From Opitutia bacterium (GTDB taxonomy: Bacteria > Verrucomicrobiota > Verrucomicrobiia > Opitutales > T3Sed10-336): 36,088 nucleotides of DNA. The stretch spans positions 1 through 36,088 of the forward strand of contig JBJHCF010000048.1 of assembly GCA_050506795.1 (NCBI GenBank), in the 5' to 3' direction. Made by a program: the position numbers and the translations under genes. Below, piece by piece: positions 1,596-34,307 of this stretch. Position 1 is the stretch's first letter; each line of letters begins with the position of its first letter. The notes under the pieces are model-generated. The model saw only the letters and a list, made by a program, of their open reading frames with translations, was not told the origin of the DNA and did not search any database.

Positions 1596-1690
1596 ATGGG
1601 TAATTTATGGTTGGGTACCGCGGTTGCGCAAGCGTGATCGGTGATCGGATAAACCCTTGTCTATTTGTCTCGGGTGTAAAATCTGGAGGT

Positions 1691-3874
1691 ATGGAAGCGA
1701 TCTGTGGCATTTGGGTTTCGCCGGAGGGAAAGGTCTGGCTCGCGTCCCGTTCTCCGGAAGGGGAACGTACGGAGGGTTCGGTTCCCTTTGTCCCGTTTCT
1801 CTGGTGCCGCGAGAAACCGGTCCTGGCGGAGCAGGGCGGTGTCGAGGTGAAAACGCTTTCCGGACCGGGGCGGTTTCGTCATTTACTGACCTTCAGCGAT
1901 CCGGCGCTTTGGCGGGAAAACCAGGCCGCGTTGCTCCGGGACAAATCGGTCGATACCCTCCGGTCGGCCGAAAGCCAGCACCTGCTGCGTCAGCGTCAGC
2001 GTTTGTTCGAAGGCATGAGTTTTCCGGATCTCCGGCGTTGCCAGGTGGATATCGAAACCGGTTGCTCGGTGAAAAACGGGTTCAGCGATGCCCGCCGGGC
2101 CGGGGACCGGGTGCTGGCCATCGGATTGCGCCTGGATGACCAAACCCGGTTCCTGGAACTCGAAAGCGATAGTGACGAAGCGGAAAAGAAGTTGCTTGCG
2201 GCCTTTGCCGATTTTCTCCGGGAGGCCGATCCGGATACCCTGGAGGGGCACAACCTTTTTAAGTTCGATCTGGATTACCTGCGTTTGCGATGCAAGCGTC
2301 ACAAACTTCCCTGCGCCTGGGGGCGTTTCGGACAGGAGGCGGTTTTCCGGGCCAGCCGGTTGAAGGCCGCCGAGCGTTGGATCGATTTTCCACGCTGCGA
2401 TATCCCCGGTCGTACCGTAATCGATACCTACCTCATGGTCCTGCTCTACGACGTCACCACCCGCGACTTGCCGGGTTACGGGTTGAAGGATGTGGCGGTG
2501 CATCTGGGAATCACGTCCGAAGGGGGCGCCGAGCGCACCTACATCGAAGGAAGTCAGATCGCCCGGATGTTTATCGAGGACCGGGAAAGGTTTCGGCGGT
2601 ACCTGAAGGACGACTTGCGGGAAACCGCGGGCATTGCCGATCTGCTGCTGCCCACCTATTTCGCGCAGGCGGGCAATTTCCCCATGACCCTGCAGGAGAT
2701 TGTGCTGCGCGGGTCCAGCTGGAAGATTGATTTGCTGTTGATGGAGGAATACTTCCATGCCGGGGAGGCTTTGCCGGAAGGCGCGGAGGTCCAAAGTTAC
2801 GAAGGAGGATTTACCCGCAGTTTTGAGTCGGGGGTCTTCCGGCAGGTGTTGCATTTCGATGTGGCCTCGCTGTATCCCAGCCTGCTTCTTGCCATGGACC
2901 GGAATCCCGCGGCCGATTCTTTGGGGGTGTTTATTCCCTTGTTGCGGCAGTTGAAGGAGTACCGGTTGAAATACAAGACTCTCGCCCGCGAGGAGCCCTC
3001 GGAGGAGCGCCGGCGCGAGTACTCCGCGCGGCAGGCGGCCTACAAGATCATTATCAACTCATTCTATGGCTACCTCGGATTCGGCAACGCGCGCTTTGCC
3101 GATGGCGACCTCGCGGCGGAGGTCACCGCGCGCGGGCGGGAACTCCTGCAGCGTTTGATTGAACGGTTTCAGGAACTCGGATGCACCGTGCTGGAGGCGG
3201 ACACGGATGGCATTTACCTGGCGTCGCCGGAACACTTCGACCACCCCGATACTCTGTTGGAGGCCGTCCAACCGGTGCTGCCGGAGGGAATCGACCTGGA
3301 ATTCGACGGCGCTTTCGAGTCCATGTTGTGCTACAAGTCCAAGAACTACGCGCTTTACGATGGGAGCAAAATCACCATTCGCGGGTCGGCTCTCCGGTCG
3401 CGGGGGATCGAACCTTACCTCAAGGACCTCACCGACACCTTGATCCGTTATCTGCTTGGAGTTGAGGCCGAGTCGCCCACAACCAAAGCGGAGTCCTACC
3501 GTCAACGTATCCAGGCCGGAGAAGCCGCCATTGAGGAAATCTCCCGCTCGGAAGTTCTCAGTCAGAATCCCGAAACCTATCAGAAGGCGCTGGAAGGCGC
3601 CAAACGCAAGCCCCGGCGCGCTTCGATGGAGGCGGCGTTGCGGATGGAAAAGGTACCGCGTTCCGGTGACCGGGTGACCTATTACATCGTCCCGGGAGAA
3701 AAGAAACGACAACCCGATTGGCAACGCGCCCGTCCGGTCGAATCCTATGACCCGAAAACAGCCCCCTACGACCCGGAATACTACACCCGAAAAATCGACG
3801 AATGGCTGAAACGCTACGCCGAGTTCCTGGAGAACGATCAGAGTGGTACACCCCGGCAGGAAGAGCTCTGGTGA
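1691..3874 (+). CDS. Family B DNA polymerase with 3'-5' exonuclease domain
   Basis: ExoI DIET, ExoII HNLFKFDLDYL, ExoIII YLKDD; polymerase motifs DVASLYPS, KIIINSFYG, ADTDG. Start placed at ATG 1691 (ORF open from 1607). Confidence 0.9.
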   Translation: MEAICGIWVSPEGKVWLASRSPEGERTEGSVPFVPFLWCREKPVLAEQGGVEVKTLSGPGRFRHLLTFSDPALWRENQAALLRDKSVDTLRSAESQHLLRQRQRLFEGMSFPDLRRCQVDIETGCSVKNGFSDARRAGDRVLAIGLRLDDQTRFLELESDSDEAEKKLLAAFADFLREADPDTLEGHNLFKFDLDYLRLRCKRHKLPCAWGRFGQEAVFRASRLKAAERWIDFPRCDIPGRTVIDTYLMVLLYDVTTRDLPGYGLKDVAVHLGITSEGGAERTYIEGSQIARMFIEDRERFRRYLKDDLRETAGIADLLLPTYFAQAGNFPMTLQEIVLRGSSWKIDLLLMEEYFHAGEALPEGAEVQSYEGGFTRSFESGVFRQVLHFDVASLYPSLLLAMDRNPAADSLGVFIPLLRQLKEYRLKYKTLAREEPSEERRREYSARQAAYKIIINSFYGYLGFGNARFADGDLAAEVTARGRELLQRLIERFQELGCTVLEADTDGIYLASPEHFDHPDTLLEAVQPVLPEGIDLEFDGAFESMLCYKSKNYALYDGSKITIRGSALRSRGIEPYLKDLTDTLIRYLLGVEAESPTTKAESYRQRIQAGEAAIEEISRSEVLSQNPETYQKALEGAKRKPRRASMEAALRMEKVPRSGDRVTYYIVPGEKKRQPDWQRARPVESYDPKTAPYDPEYYTRKIDEWLKRYAEFLENDQSGTPRQEELW

Positions 3875-26691: not shown

Positions 26692-26732
26692 TTGACCTAA
26701 ATCAATTTGCTTTCGGGTCGGCGGCGTATACT
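26692..26732 (+). promoter_or_regulatory. FNR/DNR (CRP-family) box and -10 element, class II promoter geometry
   Basis: TTGAC-ctaa-ATCAA (26692-26705; 9/10 match to TTGAT-N4-ATCAA) and TATACT at 26727-26732. Confidence 0.7.
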
Positions 26733-26766
26733 CGCCGACCAGATGAAGTTGCTGCGGGCAGAGTTT

Positions 26767-28233
26767 ATGACGGTGGGGGGACCGTCCCGTTTTGGGGCGG
26801 AATTCACGGATGTGCGGGCGAGTCGCGGGCCGGTTGCCGCTGATCGACCGGTATCCGGTTCGCCGGCGGTTTGGCTTTGGCTCGCGGTGGGCAGTCTGCT
26901 GGTGTCGGGCCTTTTTGCGTTGTTGCTGGTAGTGGGGCGCATACCGGTTTTTTCCGGATTCTTTGTGGACCCCGACTTTTTTCGGCGCTGCCTGGCGGTG
27001 CATGTCAACCTGTCCCTGCTCGTTTGGTTCAGTGCCTTTGCCGCAGCCCTGTTTGCCATGCTTCCGGGCGTGAAGCCCGGGTTTCCTCTGGCGGCCTGGG
27101 TGGCGATCGGCGGAGCCGGCGCCATGGCGTTGTCGGCCTTTGTTCCCGGGAGCGCGCCGGTGCTGTCGAACTACATTCCCTTTATAGATCACCCGCTGTT
27201 CATCGGTGGCTTGATCGCTTTTTTTGTCGGGGTCGCCACCCACTACCTAGGGGGGATGATGCGCCGTGCCGTTCCGGACACCGCGGCGGATGAGCGGGCG
27301 CCGCGGGGCGAGGCGGCCTTCCAGTTGCCGTCCGAATGTGTGCCCGGGGTATTGACGGCGGCGGTGTTGTTTTTGGTTGCCCTGACCACCTTTCTGGCCG
27401 CCTGGGCGGCGACGCCTTCGGATTTGAATCCCGCGGTCTACTACGAGTTGGTGGCCTGGGGCGGAGGTCATGTCCTGCAGGTGGCCAATGTGGCCGCCAT
27501 GGTGGCGGTCTGGCTGCTCCTGGGGTCGTCACTGACCGGACGGCGAATGGTATCCCGCCGGGTTGCCGGTGGGTTGTTCGTTTTATTGGCCGCGCCTCAT
27601 TTGGCCGGCCCGCTGCTGACCCTGCAGGGCACGGCGACACCGATCTACAACATCGGGTTCACCCGGTTGATGCAGTTTGGCATCTTCCCGGTGGCGACGG
27701 TTTTTATCGTTATATGCTCGGTCGGACTGTTTCGCGGCTGGCGTCAACGCGCGGGCTCAACCCGCTTCTGGACGGACTTTCGGACCGTGGCTCTCCTGCT
27801 GAGCCTGGTCATGACAGTGACCGGATTCATTCTCGGCGCACTGATCCGAGGGTCCACCACCATGATTCCCGCACACTACCATGCCTCCACTGGGGCGGTG
27901 ACGGTGGCGTTCATGGCCGCCATGTTCCTGGTCGCGGAATGGCGGGCCTCGCCGGCGGGAGCCGCTTTGTTGCGGCGATTCGCGCCCTGGCAACTCCTTC
28001 TCTTTGGAGGCGGGCAACTCCTTTTCGCCCTGGGGTTCGCGGTGGGAGGAGCCCATGGATTGGGGCGTAAGGAGTACGGCGCCGAGCAGCACCTGTATTC
28101 GGCAGGGGAATACGTGGGAGTCGCCATGATGGGACTGGGCGGATTGATCGCCGTCGCGGGCGGCATTCTCTTCTTCATCCTGTTGGGTGCGCTTCCGTTT
28201 GCCGGCCGCCGGCGGAAAGCCGGTAAGGAATGA
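26767..28233 (+). CDS. Degenerate heme-copper oxidase subunit I-like membrane protein
   Basis: About 12 TM segments; His motifs AVHVNL, WGGGHVLQ and PAHYHAS; helix VII HH pair and cross-link Tyr absent. Start uncertain (26743 or 26767). Confidence 0.72.
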   Translation: MTVGGPSRFGAEFTDVRASRGPVAADRPVSGSPAVWLWLAVGSLLVSGLFALLLVVGRIPVFSGFFVDPDFFRRCLAVHVNLSLLVWFSAFAAALFAMLPGVKPGFPLAAWVAIGGAGAMALSAFVPGSAPVLSNYIPFIDHPLFIGGLIAFFVGVATHYLGGMMRRAVPDTAADERAPRGEAAFQLPSECVPGVLTAAVLFLVALTTFLAAWAATPSDLNPAVYYELVAWGGGHVLQVANVAAMVAVWLLLGSSLTGRRMVSRRVAGGLFVLLAAPHLAGPLLTLQGTATPIYNIGFTRLMQFGIFPVATVFIVICSVGLFRGWRQRAGSTRFWTDFRTVALLLSLVMTVTGFILGALIRGSTTMIPAHYHASTGAVTVAFMAAMFLVAEWRASPAGAALLRRFAPWQLLLFGGGQLLFALGFAVGGAHGLGRKEYGAEQHLYSAGEYVGVAMMGLGGLIAVAGGILFFILLGALPFAGRRRKAGKE

Positions 28234-28433: not shown

Positions 28434-28958
28434 ATGAGTCTGGAACCGCCGAAAAAGGATTGGTTTGAAGCGCCGAAAGGCGCCGAACGCGTTTGGATCG
28501 GGATCGCGCTGGCCTGGTGCTTCGTGATGTTCCTGATGATGCCGTACTGGCATCTTTTTGGGAAACAGAACAGCACCGGGGAAGCCTACAAGGTGGAGCC
28601 GCGCGCTTTCCAGGAAAGGGTTGAGGCTTTTGTGGAAGCCAACCAGGTGGGCGAACTTGACGGCCAGCCCGTGGTTGAGCCGCCGCCGGGAGGCGAGGCC
28701 TATCTGCTGGCGCGGATGTGGAGCTGGTATCCGGTTCTGAAATTGAGACAAGGAGAGACTTACCGTCTGCACGTTTCCTCGCTCGATTTGCAGCACGGGA
28801 TGTCGTTGCTGCCGATGAATATGAATTTTCAGGTTCTTCCGGGATACGATCACGTTTTGACGATCACCCCGACCTCCACCGGAACCTTCACCATTGTGTG
28901 CAACGAGTTCTGCGGAGTCGGGCATTCCATGATGGTGGGAAAACTGATCGTTGAATGA
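28434..28958 (+). CDS. Heme-copper oxidoreductase subunit II with CuA (B-family-like, single TM)
   Basis: AAGGAGG RBS; DLQHG and CNEFCGVGHSMM CuA motif. Confidence 0.93.
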   Translation: MSLEPPKKDWFEAPKGAERVWIGIALAWCFVMFLMMPYWHLFGKQNSTGEAYKVEPRAFQERVEAFVEANQVGELDGQPVVEPPPGGEAYLLARMWSWYPVLKLRQGETYRLHVSSLDLQHGMSLLPMNMNFQVLPGYDHVLTITPTSTGTFTIVCNEFCGVGHSMMVGKLIVE

Positions 28959-30748
28959 GGGGAATGCGCGATATGAATACGACTGCGGAAATTGATACAA
29001 AAACAATCGAGGGCGCGCCCGGCAAGAGCGATACCCAGGACAAGGGGCGCGGCTGGAATCTGCGCTCTCTGGTCGGTGGCTCGCGAACGTGCGATACGAC
29101 CGGAATGCCGGTCTGCCTCGACGGTCAGTTCTTTATCAGGGTCAACGCCGTGCTGGCGGTGGTGTTCCTTCTGATCGGCGGCGTCGCCGCCGTCCTGCTG
29201 GCGCTGACGCGTTGGGAGGCGGTGCACCTGCTGCCGCGCGAATGGTTTTATCGCATGCTGACCCTGCACGGGCTGAACATGCTGATCTTCTGGATCCTGT
29301 TCTTCGAGATCGCCGTGCTGTACTTCGCTTGTACGACCTTGCTCAATGCGCGATTATACTCGCGCAAAGTGGCATGGGTTTCTCTGGGAATGATGCTTAC
29401 CGGGGCCGTCATGGTGAATACGGTGATCTTCCAGGGGAAGGCGGACGTCCTCTTGACCTCCTACCTGCCCCTGCTGGCTCATCCTGCATTCTACCTGGGA
29501 ATCATCCTGGTCGCGGTGGGCACCCTGGTGGGAGTGTTCAATTTCTTCGCCACCCTGTATATGGCGCGGAAACACAAAACCTATGAAGGCTCGGTGCCGC
29601 TGGTGACCTTCGGGGCGACGGCGGCGGCGATCATCGCGGTGGTGACCCTGCTGCACGGGGCGATCGTCATGATTCCGACATTCCTTTACTCCATGGGCTG
29701 GATCGGTCAACCGGACCCCATGTGGTACCGGATGATCTGGTGGGGACTGGGACACCAATCGCAGCAGGTCAACGTAGCCGCCATGGTGGCGGTCTGGTAC
29801 ATGGTGGCCACCCTGACCACCGGGGCGAAACCGCTCAATGAAACGGTCTGCCGCGGAGCGTTTGTGCTCTATATTCTCTTTATTAATATCGCGTCGGCGC
29901 ACCACCTCCTGGTCGACCCCGGTGTCGGGGCCACCTGGAAGATTTGGAACACCTCCTACGCAATGTACCTGGCCGTCCTGGCCTCGATGATACACGGATT
30001 CACAGTGCCGGCTTCGGTGGAAGTCGCCATGCGCAACAAGGGTCATCGCAAGGGCCTCTTCGGCTGGCTGACCGCCGCGCCCTGGCGCAATCCGGCGTTT
30101 TCCGCGGTGGTGCTTTCGGTAGTGATCTTCGGATTTATCGGAGGCATAACCGGAGTGACGCTCGGTACGCAGCAGATCAACATCATCGCCCATAACACGC
30201 TCCGCATCCCGGGCCACTTCCATGCGACGGTGGTGGGGGGCACGACCCTGGCCTTTATGGGCCTCACCTATTACGTGGTGCCGCTCCTGTTCAGGAAGGA
30301 CTACATCCTCCGATCGGTGGCGCGGGTGCAACCGTGGATCTTCGCGGCCGGCATCACGCTTATGTCGTTCGGCAAGTCCTTTGCCGGATCCATGGGAGTG
30401 GCGCGGCGCACTTCGACCATCGGGCCGGCCGAGGAAGCCTATGGCGCGGCCGTGCACGTCTTCCTGGGAATGCTCGGAATCGGCGGGGTGCTGGCCTTCG
30501 TCGGGTTGATGCTCTTTGTGCTCCTGACCGTGGGAACTCTGCTCTTGGGCAAGTCGAACGTGGGACGCCCGATGGCCTGCTGGGGCAAACCGGTCGACCT
30601 GGAAGGCGCGGATATGCGCTCGCGTCCTGAACACGAAGAACACAAGACGCCGGGCACGGTGATCCTGGTGGGGGTTTTCCTCCTCGCGTTCGCGGTCTAC
30701 TACTTCGCCAACTGGGCCGCCCTGGCCGATGTTTGGCATGTGAGGTAG
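28955..30748 (+). CDS. Heme-copper superfamily subunit I, eNOR-type putative nitric oxide reductase
   Basis: All six His ligands present (TLHG, LGHQSQQ, SAHH, GHFH); H+4 position is Gln instead of Tyr; ATGA overlap with subunit II (alternative start 28973). Confidence 0.82.
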   Translation: MRGMRDMNTTAEIDTKTIEGAPGKSDTQDKGRGWNLRSLVGGSRTCDTTGMPVCLDGQFFIRVNAVLAVVFLLIGGVAAVLLALTRWEAVHLLPREWFYRMLTLHGLNMLIFWILFFEIAVLYFACTTLLNARLYSRKVAWVSLGMMLTGAVMVNTVIFQGKADVLLTSYLPLLAHPAFYLGIILVAVGTLVGVFNFFATLYMARKHKTYEGSVPLVTFGATAAAIIAVVTLLHGAIVMIPTFLYSMGWIGQPDPMWYRMIWWGLGHQSQQVNVAAMVAVWYMVATLTTGAKPLNETVCRGAFVLYILFINIASAHHLLVDPGVGATWKIWNTSYAMYLAVLASMIHGFTVPASVEVAMRNKGHRKGLFGWLTAAPWRNPAFSAVVLSVVIFGFIGGITGVTLGTQQINIIAHNTLRIPGHFHATVVGGTTLAFMGLTYYVVPLLFRKDYILRSVARVQPWIFAAGITLMSFGKSFAGSMGVARRTSTIGPAEEAYGAAVHVFLGMLGIGGVLAFVGLMLFVLLTVGTLLLGKSNVGRPMACWGKPVDLEGADMRSRPEHEEHKTPGTVILVGVFLLAFAVYYFANWAALADVWHVR

Positions 30749-30806: not shown

Positions 30807-31802
30807 ATGATGAATGGAACTGAACAGGCCGTAGAGCGAGTGTGCCGATTTTTCGGCGGGGCCGGGTTTCCCGTCTTCCTTATCTCCGCGGCTGGTTTTT
30901 ACCTGGCATTTCTGACGGCGGCCGTCTTTTGGCCGCCGTCGGAGGGGCTGGTGGGAACCTTTGCCACCGATTTTCGTGTCTGGTGTTTTGGATACGAACC
31001 GGGAACCGGCGCCATGCGCTGGAGCTGGGTTTGGATCATGTTGACCCAGCCGTTTATCCTGCTGGGAATCGCTCTCGGGTTCTGGCGGGAACCGATCGCC
31101 GAGCTTTGGCGACACCGCAAGACGGGGTTTCTGGCACCGGCGGTTTCCGGAGTCGTTTCCGCGGTGGCGTTGGGCGGGGGACTGCTGGCGTTGGCGTTCG
31201 AGCCCGGCGACCGGCCGTTGGAGCCCTTTCCCGGTGAGCGGATCCGAACCGCTTTGGCGGCGCCGGAGTTCACGCTGCACAACCAGGACGGTGACGTGGT
31301 TTCACTGTCCGATTACCAGGGAAAGGTGGTTCTGTTGACCGCCATCTACGCGACCTGTCCGACGGCCTGTCCCATGATCGCCCTGCAGGCGAAACGCAGC
31401 ATCGACCGTTTGGATGAGGATCTGCGGGACGAGGTCACCATTCTGGCGGTTTCCCTCGATCCGGAAGGCGATACCATGGAGAAGATGGCGGTGGCGGCAG
31501 AGGCCTATGGGATGAGCGCGCCGCAGTTTCATTTTCTCAATGGTGAGCCCGACGAGGTCAACCGGGTGCTCGATCGGTTGCAGGTGGCGCGAATGGCGAA
31601 TGAAAAAACCGGGGAGATCGACCACGCCAACCTCTTCTTCCTCATCGACCGGGGCGGAACCATCGCCTACCGTTTCAATTTGAGTGAACGCCACGAAGAG
31701 TGGCTGATCGAAGCGTTGCGCAGCCTGGTTGAGGAAGATCCGCCGGGAAGCGCACCCGTCCATGCCATTGATCGGCGGAAGGAGAGTCCGTTTGCGGGTT
31801 GA
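30807..31802 (+). CDS. SCO1/SenC copper chaperone with N-terminal multi-TM domain
   Basis: CPTAC (CxxxC), VSLDPEGD, IDH; three hydrophobic segments before the thioredoxin fold. Confidence 0.9.
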   Translation: MMNGTEQAVERVCRFFGGAGFPVFLISAAGFYLAFLTAAVFWPPSEGLVGTFATDFRVWCFGYEPGTGAMRWSWVWIMLTQPFILLGIALGFWREPIAELWRHRKTGFLAPAVSGVVSAVALGGGLLALAFEPGDRPLEPFPGERIRTALAAPEFTLHNQDGDVVSLSDYQGKVVLLTAIYATCPTACPMIALQAKRSIDRLDEDLRDEVTILAVSLDPEGDTMEKMAVAAEAYGMSAPQFHFLNGEPDEVNRVLDRLQVARMANEKTGEIDHANLFFLIDRGGTIAYRFNLSERHEEWLIEALRSLVEEDPPGSAPVHAIDRRKESPFAG

Positions 31803-32108: not shown

Positions 32109-34307
32109 ATGAGGCAAAGTGTGAAAAAAGAATCCGGGGCGGATGGCTCCGGCTGGATGGCTTTCGCCTGGGAGGAGAAGGAATTTCCAGGAGCTACGAG
32201 TCATGGTGGACCGGATACAACCGAGGGCGAAGCCGATGTTCCGAAACCGCGCCGGACAACGACCGGTGTTTCTGGCGAGAAAATCCGAGGCGAATCTTTC
32301 CTGCGACGGATTGACGGTTGGTTCGGACGTTTCGACGGGGTTTTGGATCGCTCGATCCCGGAGAGCCTGAATCCGTTGGCGCGTACCGGTGCCATTGCCA
32401 ACACTACTTTTCTGATCGCCGCCTTCACCGGCGTTTTTCTTTTGTTCTGGTATTCGCCCAGTGTGCATTACGCTTACGATTCTCTCGAGGCGCTGCGTAC
32501 GGATTCACCATTGGGACAACTCATGCGTTCGTTGCACCGGTACAGTTCGGACGCCTGTATGCTTTTTGTGGTGCTGCACATCGTGCGGGTGCTGGTGGCC
32601 CGCAAGTTCACCGGGGCGAGATCATTGGCCTGGATCACCGGGGTGTTTATTCTGGGGGTCTTGATGGTGATCGGGTGGAGCGGATACTGGCTGGTGTGGG
32701 ATGAACGGGCGCAACAGGTGGCCCTGGGCGTCGCTAAAATGTTCGACGTGCTGCCGGTCTTTTCCGAACCCCTGACCCGGTCCTTCCTGGTGGCTGAGAA
32801 GGTGCCTTCGCTTTTCTTCTTTCTGGTTTTCTTCGTTCACATGCTGCTGCCGCTGGCGATCGCGGTCATGTTGTGGCTGCACCTGAGCCGGGTCAGTCGT
32901 CCCAAACTCTTCACCAGCCTGCCGCTGACGGCGTGGATCCTGGGCACGTTAGTGGTGCTTTCGCTGGCGCTCCCCGCCGAGAGCGCCGGTCGCGCGGACT
33001 TGTCGGTGCAACCGGAGGGATTTGGCATGGACTGGTGGTACCTCTGGCCGCTGGTGTTGACCGATCGCCTCGGGGGTGGAGCCTTGTGGGGGTTGCTCTT
33101 TGTGGGAACGCTGGCGTTTTGCGCGGTGCCGGCTTTGATGCGAAAGAAGACGACGGCGTTGGCGGCGGCGCGGGTCGACACGAATGCCTGCCAGGGCTGC
33201 ACCCTGTGCTCGAAGGATTGTCCGTTTGACGCCATTCGGATGGTGGCCAGGGACAGGGACGGGAAAGGTCCGAAGTGGCAAGCGCTGGTGGATGCGGACA
33301 AATGTGTTTCCTGTGGGATTTGCACGGGGGCGTGCGATTCGGACGCCATCGCGATGCCGGGATTCGAGGCGCTGACGGAGAAGCAGGCGGTGAGCGAATG
33401 GGTCCGAGCGCGGAAAGAAAAAGGGGAGGAAGCGTTCCTTGCCTATGTTTGCGGCGAGTCGACTGACAACCTGGCCATCAATGGAGTGACGGGGCGGTCA
33501 CCGGCGTTGCCCGGCTACCGTGTGCGTTCCGTGCCTTGTGCCGGTTGGGTGAGCGCTCCGCTGCTCGAGCATGCGTTGCAGGAAGGAGCCTCCGGAGTTC
33601 TGATACTGGGATGCCGTTCGGGCGAGGCGCGTTATCGTGAGGGTGCGGACTGGCTGGAGGCGCGTCTGGACGGCAAACGGAAGCCGATACTGCGTCCCCG
33701 ACTCGCCGAGCGCCAGCGGGTGCGGTTTCTCCGCATGACGCCCGCGTCCAGGGACGAGGTGGCCGCGGCGGCGACCTCGTTTCGCCGGGAACAGTCGCTG
33801 GCGACATCCCCACGCAAAGGCCGTCTGGCGGCGTGGGCGGTGGGAATCTTGCTGGCAGCGGCCTTCGCGCTGGCCACCTGGGCTGGGAGCGAAGCGCCGT
33901 ATGTGGCGCCGGATGGGTCGCCCGAGTTGATCGTCTCGTTTCGTCATTCCGGCGAACTTCTGGAAGAAGAACGTCGGCTCACCGAAGAAGAACTGGAGCG
34001 CCTGCCACCGCACATGCGCACGGAGTTCGTGTCCAGCGGAGAAAGGGTCCCGGTCCGGTTGCGGGTGTATCTGGACGGGGAGCTACTGGTGGAACAGGAG
34101 TACCGTCCTCGCGGCTTGCGTCGCGACGGCCCCAGCACCGCCATGGAGCGCATCGAACTGCCCGAGGGCACCCATACATTGCGGGTGCTTATCAACGACA
34201 CCACCAACCCCGGCGCCTGGCCGCACGAATGGAACGGCGAAGTCGAAGTCGACGCCCGCGATCGCCGCGTCCTGCTCTTCGGAAGCGACGGGTTTGCGTT
34301 GTATTAG
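32109..34307 (+). CDS. Fusion of cytochrome b, 2x[4Fe-4S] ferredoxin, MvhD/FlpD-like domain and a TM-anchored C-terminal domain
   Basis: SLHRY...VLH and FVHM...WLH heme b His pairs, SGYWLVWD, MDWWY (PEWY-like); CQGCTLCSKDCP and CVSCGICTGAC; AYVC, VPCAGWV, LILGCRSGEARY. Confidence 0.85.
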   Translation: MRQSVKKESGADGSGWMAFAWEEKEFPGATSHGGPDTTEGEADVPKPRRTTTGVSGEKIRGESFLRRIDGWFGRFDGVLDRSIPESLNPLARTGAIANTTFLIAAFTGVFLLFWYSPSVHYAYDSLEALRTDSPLGQLMRSLHRYSSDACMLFVVLHIVRVLVARKFTGARSLAWITGVFILGVLMVIGWSGYWLVWDERAQQVALGVAKMFDVLPVFSEPLTRSFLVAEKVPSLFFFLVFFVHMLLPLAIAVMLWLHLSRVSRPKLFTSLPLTAWILGTLVVLSLALPAESAGRADLSVQPEGFGMDWWYLWPLVLTDRLGGGALWGLLFVGTLAFCAVPALMRKKTTALAAARVDTNACQGCTLCSKDCPFDAIRMVARDRDGKGPKWQALVDADKCVSCGICTGACDSDAIAMPGFEALTEKQAVSEWVRARKEKGEEAFLAYVCGESTDNLAINGVTGRSPALPGYRVRSVPCAGWVSAPLLEHALQEGASGVLILGCRSGEARYREGADWLEARLDGKRKPILRPRLAERQRVRFLRMTPASRDEVAAAATSFRREQSLATSPRKGRLAAWAVGILLAAAFALATWAGSEAPYVAPDGSPELIVSFRHSGELLEEERRLTEEELERLPPHMRTEFVSSGERVPVRLRVYLDGELLVEQEYRPRGLRRDGPSTAMERIELPEGTHTLRVLINDTTNPGAWPHEWNGEVEVDARDRRVLLFGSDGFALY

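Follow-up and report, generated by a model that had tools for sequence, protein, structure and literature searches.

The stretch of DNA analysed here (further called the window) comprises 36,088 nucleotides of an Opitutia bacterium of the phylum Verrucomicrobiota (assembly GCA_050506795.1, contig JBJHCF010000048.1, positions 1 to 36,088) and carries a gene in which a bc-type cytochrome b is fused to a ferredoxin domain, an MvhD/FlpD-like domain, an additional transmembrane (TM) helix and a periplasmic beta-sandwich. This fusion gene closes a five-gene cassette of eNOR, a nitric oxide (NO) reductase with a CuA subunit, and its product is probably an electron-transfer accessory of one clade of that enzyme. 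Such a role is suggested by the two-haem path across the membrane, the iron-sulfur (Fe-S) domains on the inner side, the conserved site and the additional domain on the outer side, the lack of a Rieske protein and the tie of the gene to one eNOR clade and to Sco. The protein belongs to a large uncharacterised family, a variant of bc-type cytochrome b with fused Fe-S domains and without a Rieske protein; no experimental study of any family member was found in literature searches.

The eNOR cassette and its distribution

All five genes of the cassette lie on the same strand, in the order given below (aa, amino acids; HCO, haem-copper oxidoreductase; ORF, open reading frame; AF2, AlphaFold2 model).

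26707..28233, forward strand, paralogue of HCO subunit I (HCO-like haem protein), 508 aa, first cassette gene; weak Pfam COX1 match
28434..28958, forward strand, CuA subunit II of eNOR, 174 aa; Pfam COX2 and NCBIfam CoxB/NosZ C-terminal matches
28955..30748, forward strand, eNOR subunit I (HCO), 597 aa; Pfam COX1, residues H267, Q271, Y282, H316/H317, S344 and H347
30807..31802, forward strand, Sco paralogue, 331 aa; Pfam SCO1-SenC, three N-terminal TM helices
32109..34307, forward strand, whole fusion gene: cytochrome b, 2x[4Fe-4S] ferredoxin, MvhD-like domain, TM helix and beta-sandwich; ORF, Pfam and AF2

Subunit I carries the eNOR signature residues listed in Dataset S1 of Murali et al. 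2024 (PMC11214002), namely glutamine at the position of the cross-linked tyrosine (Q271) together with Y282, S344 and H347, at a constant offset of 26 from the Rhodothermus marinus (R. marinus) numbering. A locus scan with one genome per species gave 342 stretches matching the search patterns, 317 of which encode a relative of the fusion protein, and the best 80 were kept. These loci span Verrucomicrobiota, Myxococcota, Planctomycetota, Rhodothermales, Calditrichota, Gemmatimonadota, Methylomirabilota and other groups, and one of them comes from a cultured strain (L071, titled Fodinibius halophilus strain 2W32). Synteny was counted by tblastn of the window proteins on the 80 loci; clustering of ORFs merged Sco, HCO subunit I and the HCO-like gene and was affected by antisense shadow ORFs. 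Sco stands directly upstream of the fusion gene in 79/80 loci, eNOR subunit I is present in 77/80 and CuA subunit II in 64/80, in a constant order, and in many loci the Sco stop codon overlaps the fusion gene or lies within a few tens of bases of it. A separate HCO-like gene was found in 54/80 loci (E <= 1e-15), a count from which ten weaker matches (E ~1e-6 to 1e-7) were left out as cross-matches falling inside subunit I. Most of the misses lie at contig ends, and L047 and L051 end just upstream of Sco. Wherever the region aligns, which is the case in 71 loci, the signature residues of eNOR are kept without exception. The cassette has no conserved gene for a cytochrome c or a cupredoxin.

The cassette Sco is the second copy in the genome, where another Sco gene is located elsewhere, and it is a specialised one, with three TM helices and an invariant cysteine (C60) in a periplasmic loop of the consensus FRxWCFGYDP, in addition to invariant C184 and C188 (CxxxC) and H273. 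In 51-54 of 54 loci the HCO-like paralogue conserves histidines at the haem-ligand positions (H99, H390 and H392) and the metal-site H255, but helix VII no longer has its HH pair and H298 is variable. Its active site is incomplete, yet it could hold two haems, and it may be the “eNOR scaffold protein” which, together with sco1, is named as a common member of eNOR operons in a preprint on Ferrigenium straubiae (10.64898/2026.01.22.701106).

The distribution of the fusion gene was followed in two samples, one of 401 genomes of the phylum of the window (subunit I threshold E <= 1e-60) and one of 201 genomes of the class containing locus L073. In the first sample the cassette-type subunit I and a strong fusion match were found in an identical set of 12 genomes, in each case on one contig; a further match, the thirteenth, covers residues 86-264 only and is of the ordinary cytochrome b type. 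In the second sample subunit I was found at 65-69% identity in 11 genomes, with the fusion gene beside it in 11/11. No strong fusion match was obtained in the remaining 389 and 190 genomes of the two samples, respectively. Nine further genomes of the second sample have an eNOR-like subunit I at 41-45% identity, with glutamine at the signature position, and none of the nine gave a fusion match at E <= 1e-10. Their loci (L084-L086 and L091-L096) consist of CuA subunit II and subunit I only, and neither Sco, nor the fusion, nor a separate HCO-like gene was found within ~8-9 kb on either side in any of the nine (E <= 1e-3). In the one second-clade subunit I that was numbered (L085), Q245, Y256, S318 and H321 are exactly the R. 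marinus residue numbers of Dataset S1.

Judged from these sequences, eNOR comprises at least two clades, a two-gene type with R. marinus numbering and the five-gene type of the window, and the fusion, Sco and HCO-like genes behave as one package. The preliminary description of this DNA, prepared from its letters alone, had proposed a dedicated module of the CuA NO reductase, which is well supported by the synteny of Sco and subunit I. It had also considered that the architecture might occur mostly independently of eNOR loci, which is not so in view of the 12/12 and 11/11 co-occurrence. The dedication holds, nevertheless, for one eNOR clade and does not extend to the R. marinus-numbered clade, where the module is absent from 9/9 loci.

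Several other genes were noticed around the eNOR loci. A NirK-cytochrome c fusion flanks some cassettes (L026 3208-4737, L035 12084-13712) and, in the two loci tested, exceeds the NCBIfam cut-off. Rrf2-family regulators (ORFs of 138-171 aa) are placed divergently upstream of cassettes in 10 loci (two tested), a heme o synthase gene is near the cassette in 14 loci (two tested) and Crp/Fnr regulators in 6 (one tested). In L086, a second-clade locus, a ScdA/hemerythrin gene (iron-centre repair type) and a HemN-like radical SAM gene are located just downstream.

Architecture of the fusion protein

The fusion gene is one intact ORF of 732 aa plus stop codon. Its parts are as follows, all on the forward strand.

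32109..32261, forward strand, N-terminal residues 1-51: variable, predicted disordered, cytoplasmic, start codon uncertain; AF2 pLDDT <50, unaligned
32385..33140, forward strand, cytochrome b core, helices A-F, residues ~93-344; PF00033, invariant His, Foldseek, hydropathy and AF2 helices
32676..32702, forward strand, P-side motif G-W-x-G-Y-W-L-V-W-D, residues 189-198; aligned with the cd-helix region of cytochrome b6
33027..33041, forward strand, MDWWY, residues 307-311: periplasmic E-F helix loop, at the place of PEWY; hydropathy and AF2
33162..33362, forward strand, 2x[4Fe-4S] ferredoxin domain, residues ~352-418, cytoplasmic; Fer4 families, eight invariant Cys
33438..33788, forward strand, MvhD/FlpD-like domain, residues 444-560, cytoplasmic; Pfam FlpD, C448, C477 and C502 kept
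33822..33890, forward strand, seventh TM helix, residues ~572-594; hydropathy, AF2 helix 572-594, helix 3-28 of the C-terminal model
33894..34304, forward strand, periplasmic beta-sandwich, residues 596-732; AF2, conserved H613, H635, M636 and D673

The full-length AF2 model is confident (pLDDT 87.6, pTM 0.86) except for the disordered residues 1-51. Hydropathy and the model agree on six core helices, a cytoplasmic part (residues 345-571) with the Fe-S domains, the seventh helix and the periplasmic beta-sandwich, so a seven-helix membrane redox protein is predicted, with a bc-type core and two haems stacked across the membrane. Residue conservation was judged on 59 aligned relatives, whose sequences were translated from genome loci and have an overall identity of 40-50%. 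By these means the ORF, domains and motifs of the preliminary description were confirmed. In NCBIfam the protein comes closest to the Rieske-less cytochrome ExtP (NF040969, cytb_ExtP, 113 vs 290 bits) and to the C-terminal part of HdrA2 (NF040770, HdrA2, 88 vs 1100 bits); with scores far below the curated cut-offs, it is a member of neither family.

The core is a cytochrome b by several measures. Pfam Cytochrome_B (PF00033) covers residues 80-260 (E 3e-25, 89.6 bits vs a cut-off of 27.2), PF00032, the C-terminal cytochrome b domain, gave no Pfam match, and the best Foldseek match of the model is bc1 cytochrome b (E 1.2e-8, ~300-330 columns). The haem-ligand histidines, H143 and H157 in helix B and H244 and H258 in helix D, do not vary and are 14 residues apart (13 between) in either helix; the alignment of helix D with cytochrome b6 needs a one-residue gap. 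On the P-side, G189, W190, G192, Y193, W194, L195, V196, W197 and D198 are all invariant. In the MDWWY loop D308 is invariant, as are P314 and R320 downstream of it, and relatives have M, I, L or F in the first place. The proline and glutamate of PEWY, the ef-loop motif of bc-type cytochrome b, are replaced. The cysteine of “FYCLGG” in b6 (6rqf_I), presumably the ligand of haem ci, aligns with R91 of the fusion, which is not of the b6 type in this respect.

The cytoplasmic arm starts with the ferredoxin domain (Pfam Fer4-type matches at residues 355-414), which matches the C-terminal ferredoxin domain of HdrA and FwdF and holds two CxxCxxCxxxC motifs, C361/364/367/371 and C399/402/405/409, with all eight cysteines invariant. 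It is followed by the domain matched by Pfam FlpD (PF02662, residues 444-560, E 3.5e-13, 50.1 bits vs a cut-off of 22.3). In comparison to the solved MvhD chain 5odc_D, C448, C477 and C502 correspond to Cys 13, 42 and 67, and Cys 12, 16 and 72 are replaced by V, S and A; C448 and C477 are invariant in the 59 sequences, and C502 is kept in >=90% of them. The MvhD/FlpD-like domain of the preliminary description is thus present, its full cysteine set is not, with three of six MvhD positions kept, and for this reason a third cluster is unproven and a count of three clusters premature. The domain may be without a cluster; a search of PMC12350162 found no naming of the four cysteines that ligate the [2Fe-2S] cluster of MvhD.

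The C-terminal module, folded alone, reached an AF2 pLDDT of 95.4. LPPHM corresponds to residues 632-636; its M636 never varies among the 59 sequences, at least 90% of which also have H613 and H635; the set H613/H635/M636/D673 would suit Cu(I) as ligands and is given here as a lead only. The beta-sandwich has no known family and no specific structural or sequence relative. Foldseek against PDB returned no match at E <= 0.001, and the best VIA-align hits (Z up to 7.8) were generic Ig/transthyretin-like sandwiches, with no copper, DOMON, FixG_C or haem domain listed, a result which excludes nothing. Pfam searches of 62 C-terminal domains found no family in more than three members, an ESM Atlas search with the periplasmic domain gave unnamed clusters of 152-167 aa alone, and PCuAC (PF04314) was matched neither by Pfam nor by hhalign (probability 0.16%, with a single PCuAC sequence used).

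In terms of size, a word-indexed search gave 423 clusters of relatives, the best 120 of which are all ~670-776 aa long with the same Pfam set, and at E <= 1e-30 an exhaustive profile search returned 633 representatives. A minority of the best 150 of these, ~490-550 aa long, ends near profile position 510 and is without the seventh helix and the beta-sandwich. No longer fused forms (1282-3660 aa) were seen at E <= 1e-10, which is weak evidence, and a search for short stand-alone C-terminal modules yielded one partial protein. Three variants were noted as well. In L087 (5864-8111, reverse strand) the fusion appears as two neighbouring ORFs with a slight overlap, one of 578 aa with the cytochrome b, Fe-S and MvhD-like parts and one of 176 aa with the TM helix and the beta-sandwich, which may be a true split or a frameshift. 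L088 (5213-5824, reverse strand) has a stand-alone 203-aa relative of the C-terminal module, 35% identical over residues 539-732. Its neighbours are genes for a fatty-acid hydroxylase and an FG-GAP repeat protein, and the 14 kb of the locus contain no eNOR genes. L089 holds a divergent form of 681 aa without a FlpD match.

Candidate partners in the window and the genome

The lack of an adjacent Rieske or c-type cytochrome gene, pointed out in the preliminary description, was borne out by a motif scan and a survey of ORFs: no CxxCH or CxH..CxxH Rieske motif is present in any open frame of >=60 aa on both strands of the whole window, and the 17 larger ORFs in the rest of it are housekeeping genes. 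A gene of a family B DNA polymerase (755 aa, 1607-3874, forward strand) was also observed amid the housekeeping genes for NusA, IF-2, TruB, RibF and RpoN.

The possibility of a Rieske partner encoded elsewhere had likewise been raised. The source assembly is 4.94 Mb and 97.8% complete, and no bc-type Rieske partner was found in it. The sole PF00355 (Rieske) match of the genome lies inside an 855-aa ORF on another contig (C74; L001 592-3159, reverse strand), which, read by eye, resembles a membrane desaturase-Rieske-ferredoxin reductase-like fusion and not a bc-type subunit. PF00033 and PF02662 have one match each in the genome, both of them in the fusion gene. Five COX1-type genes are present in it, and an NrfD-type gene is located a few kb from another COX1-type (oxidase) gene, where it could be part of a possible alternative complex III.

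Proposed function and alternative explanations

The favoured reading, held tentatively and at somewhat less than even confidence, is that the fusion protein is a dedicated outward electron wire. Electrons would enter from a soluble donor at the cytoplasmic Fe-S arm, cross the membrane via haem bH and then haem bL, and exit on the P-side, through the invariant site rich in Trp and Tyr and through the beta-sandwich. Their acceptors would be periplasmic copper centres, that is membrane-anchored Sco and/or the CuA of subunit II, where copper would be reduced and loaded (maturation or repair) or NO reduction would be fed. Outward transfer is favoured because a simple path from quinol to CuA would leave the cytoplasmic arm without a role, because the cassette is without a cytochrome c or cupredoxin gene, because the module travels with Sco, and because a cytochrome c-fused relative is on record (Table A3 of PMC8756737). 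The NirK-cytochrome c, Rrf2 and Crp/Fnr genes near some cassettes add an NO-related setting in favour of this reading. The direction of electrons, the partners and the choice between a catalytic and an assembly role are what we infer from this combination.

Several observations weigh against the outward wire. The invariant cd-helix motif of the P-side and the DWWY loop fit a retained quinol site at least equally well, and the beta-sandwich shows no similarity to known copper or haem domains. No cytoplasmic donor gene is conserved in the cassette, and in one of the 80 loci (L025) the 10 kb upstream of the fusion are without any of the four other cassette genes. There is no clear nitrite reductase in the source genome, in which NirS was not found and a NirK-like match stayed below cut-off. 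Moreover, the two-subunit R. marinus eNOR is active with artificial donors (PMC11214002) and the clade that shares its residue numbering is without the module, so that neither the catalysis of eNOR nor the assembly of CuA depends on the module as a general rule.

The main competitor, which we regard as rather unlikely, is a Rieske-less quinol-oxidising module with a Qo-like pocket on the P-side. Bifurcation would send one electron to CuA, via the copper head of Sco or via the beta-sandwich as a stand-in for Rieske, and the other by way of bL, bH and the Fe-S arm to an acceptor in the cytoplasm, so that NO reduction would drive the reduction of NAD+ or ferredoxin. It draws on the GWxGYWLVWD motif and D308, invariant despite an overall identity of 40-50%, on the match of the core to bc1 cytochrome b over ~300 columns, on the lack of another bc-type complex in the genome and on the layout of Sco, whose membrane anchor and periplasmic metal-binding head form a Rieske-like arrangement. 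Quinol:NAD+ coupling has also been proposed for related proteins of an eNOR operon (10.64898/2026.01.22.701106). On the other hand, neither Rieske nor another known high-potential acceptor is present, and PEWY has lost its Pro and Glu. The inward step would be uphill, since the potentials of ferredoxin-type clusters usually lie far below those of b haems, and Sco is not known to act as a redox carrier. A special form of this idea is a “Sco/cytochrome b complex”, in which the copper head of Sco replaces Rieske at the invariant Qo-like site and bifurcation sends one electron through Sco to CuA and NO and the other through bL and bH into the Fe-S/MvhD arm, where low-potential cytoplasmic reductant would be made by NO-driven reverse electron flow; it is considered very improbable.

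Unlikely, too, is a pure assembly factor, a metallo- or thiol reductase acting with Sco in eNOR biogenesis (delivery of CuA copper, or insertion of metal or haem involving the HCO-like paralogue). The fusion, Sco and HCO-like genes come and go together, the Sco paralogue is specialised, the periplasmic His/His/Met would suit Cu(I), and PCuAC was found neither in the source genome nor in 4/5 other carriers searched. There is a precedent in CcoG, a membrane cupric reductase with 2x[4Fe-4S] that serves the assembly of cbb3 oxidase. However, other CuA enzymes of the same genome and the second eNOR clade manage without the fusion, a two-haem, multi-cluster protein of 732 aa is elaborate for assembly alone, and hhalign of the periplasmic domain against one PCuAC sequence gave a probability of 0.16%. 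The related proteins have, in addition, been reported in a proteome of denitrifying growth (10.64898/2026.01.22.701106). Finally, the gene could be a general hitch-hiking cytochrome b, a ferredoxin/NAD(P)H:quinone oxidoreductase or a NarI-like redox loop that serves the quinone pool with no mechanistic link to eNOR. This is highly doubtful, notwithstanding that the fusion is the only bc-type cytochrome b of the genome, that no partner gene is proven and that L025 has no eNOR genes nearby: the gene shares a contig with one eNOR clade in 12/12 and 11/11 genomes, gave no strong match in the other 389 and 190 sampled genomes and keeps a fixed gene order across phyla, and the NrfD-type gene beside another oxidase could supply a possible alternative complex III.

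Significance

According to PMC11214002, eNOR is among the common nitric oxide reductases (2,709 IMG-metagenome and 547 GTDB hits in Table 1). It therefore contributes to the formation of nitrous oxide; no naming of its physiological electron donor was found in that article. The accessory trio of fusion, Sco and HCO-like gene marks one large eNOR clade, and the R. marinus-numbered clade carries none of it. If the module feeds or matures eNOR, it would set the energy conserved from NO and would be needed for heterologous expression of the clade; if it is bifurcating, it would represent a new type of quinol-based energy coupling. The question is testable, since there is a cultured carrier among the loci (L071).

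Comparison with known systems

The fusion resembles cytochrome b of bc1 and b6f complexes in its fold, helices A-F, PF00033, the four histidines with 13-residue spacing, the conserved cd-helix region and the acidic-aromatic motif of the ef loop. It differs from them by the lack of a genomic Rieske partner, DWWY in place of PEWY, the missing haem ci cysteine and the missing PF00032 match, and it adds Fe-S domains on the N-side, an extra helix and a periplasmic domain. Residues 352-560 match the C-terminus of HdrA2 (E 3.6e-25), and the MvhD-like domain matches the solved MvhD chains of Mvh-Hdr complexes (E 4e-6). In contrast to HdrA2 and MvhD, the fusion scores far below the family cut-offs (88 vs 1100 bits) and keeps three of six MvhD cysteines, it has no hydrogenase, HdrB/C or flavin domain, and its module is tethered to a membrane cytochrome.

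Redox loops of the NarI-NarH, HdrE-HdrD and QmoC type also link a P-side site to cytoplasmic Fe-S clusters by two haems, as in the fusion, but their cytochromes have the NarI fold, unlike the bc fold found here, and their partners and substrates are known. In outward reductases (NOX/Fre metalloreductases, cytochrome b561-DOMON, CcoG) electrons pass from a cytoplasmic donor through two haems or Fe-S centres to an extracytoplasmic metal acceptor. Their likeness to the fusion is functional and belongs to the favoured reading; the beta-sandwich matched no DOMON, FixG_C or copper domain.

Similar proteins have been touched upon in the literature. Table A3 of Schwartz et al. 2022 (PMC8756737) lists, without comment, one protein with cytochrome b6, DMSOR_beta-like, FlpD and cytochrome c domains, and no mention of a fusion-type gene was found in PMC11214002, with its supporting-information appendix outside the search. 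Apart from that table and the Ferrigenium preprint, no mention of such a protein was found in literature searches, with bioRxiv supplements outside their range. The present analysis adds the division of eNOR into two clades, the observation that its three accessory genes behave as a package, the specialised character of the cassette Sco, a description of the periplasmic domain and the caveat on the MvhD cluster.

A close counterpart is the eNOR operon of Ferrigenium straubiae with its two cytochrome b/[Fe-S] genes, whose cytochrome b is similar to the bc1 subunit and which are described as “rather unusual”, for which a quinol:NAD+ supercomplex has been proposed and whose products were found in the proteome under denitrifying conditions (10.64898/2026.01.22.701106). 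The fusion fits the description of a cytochrome b with [Fe-S] encoded in an eNOR operon with sco1, the comparison being made by description only. It differs in that two such genes are present there, one with FAD- and NADH-binding domains, and the preprint text consulted mentions no MvhD-like or C-terminal periplasmic domain. In contrast to the Ferrigenium genes, regarded as rather unusual, the fusion module is the rule for a whole eNOR clade.

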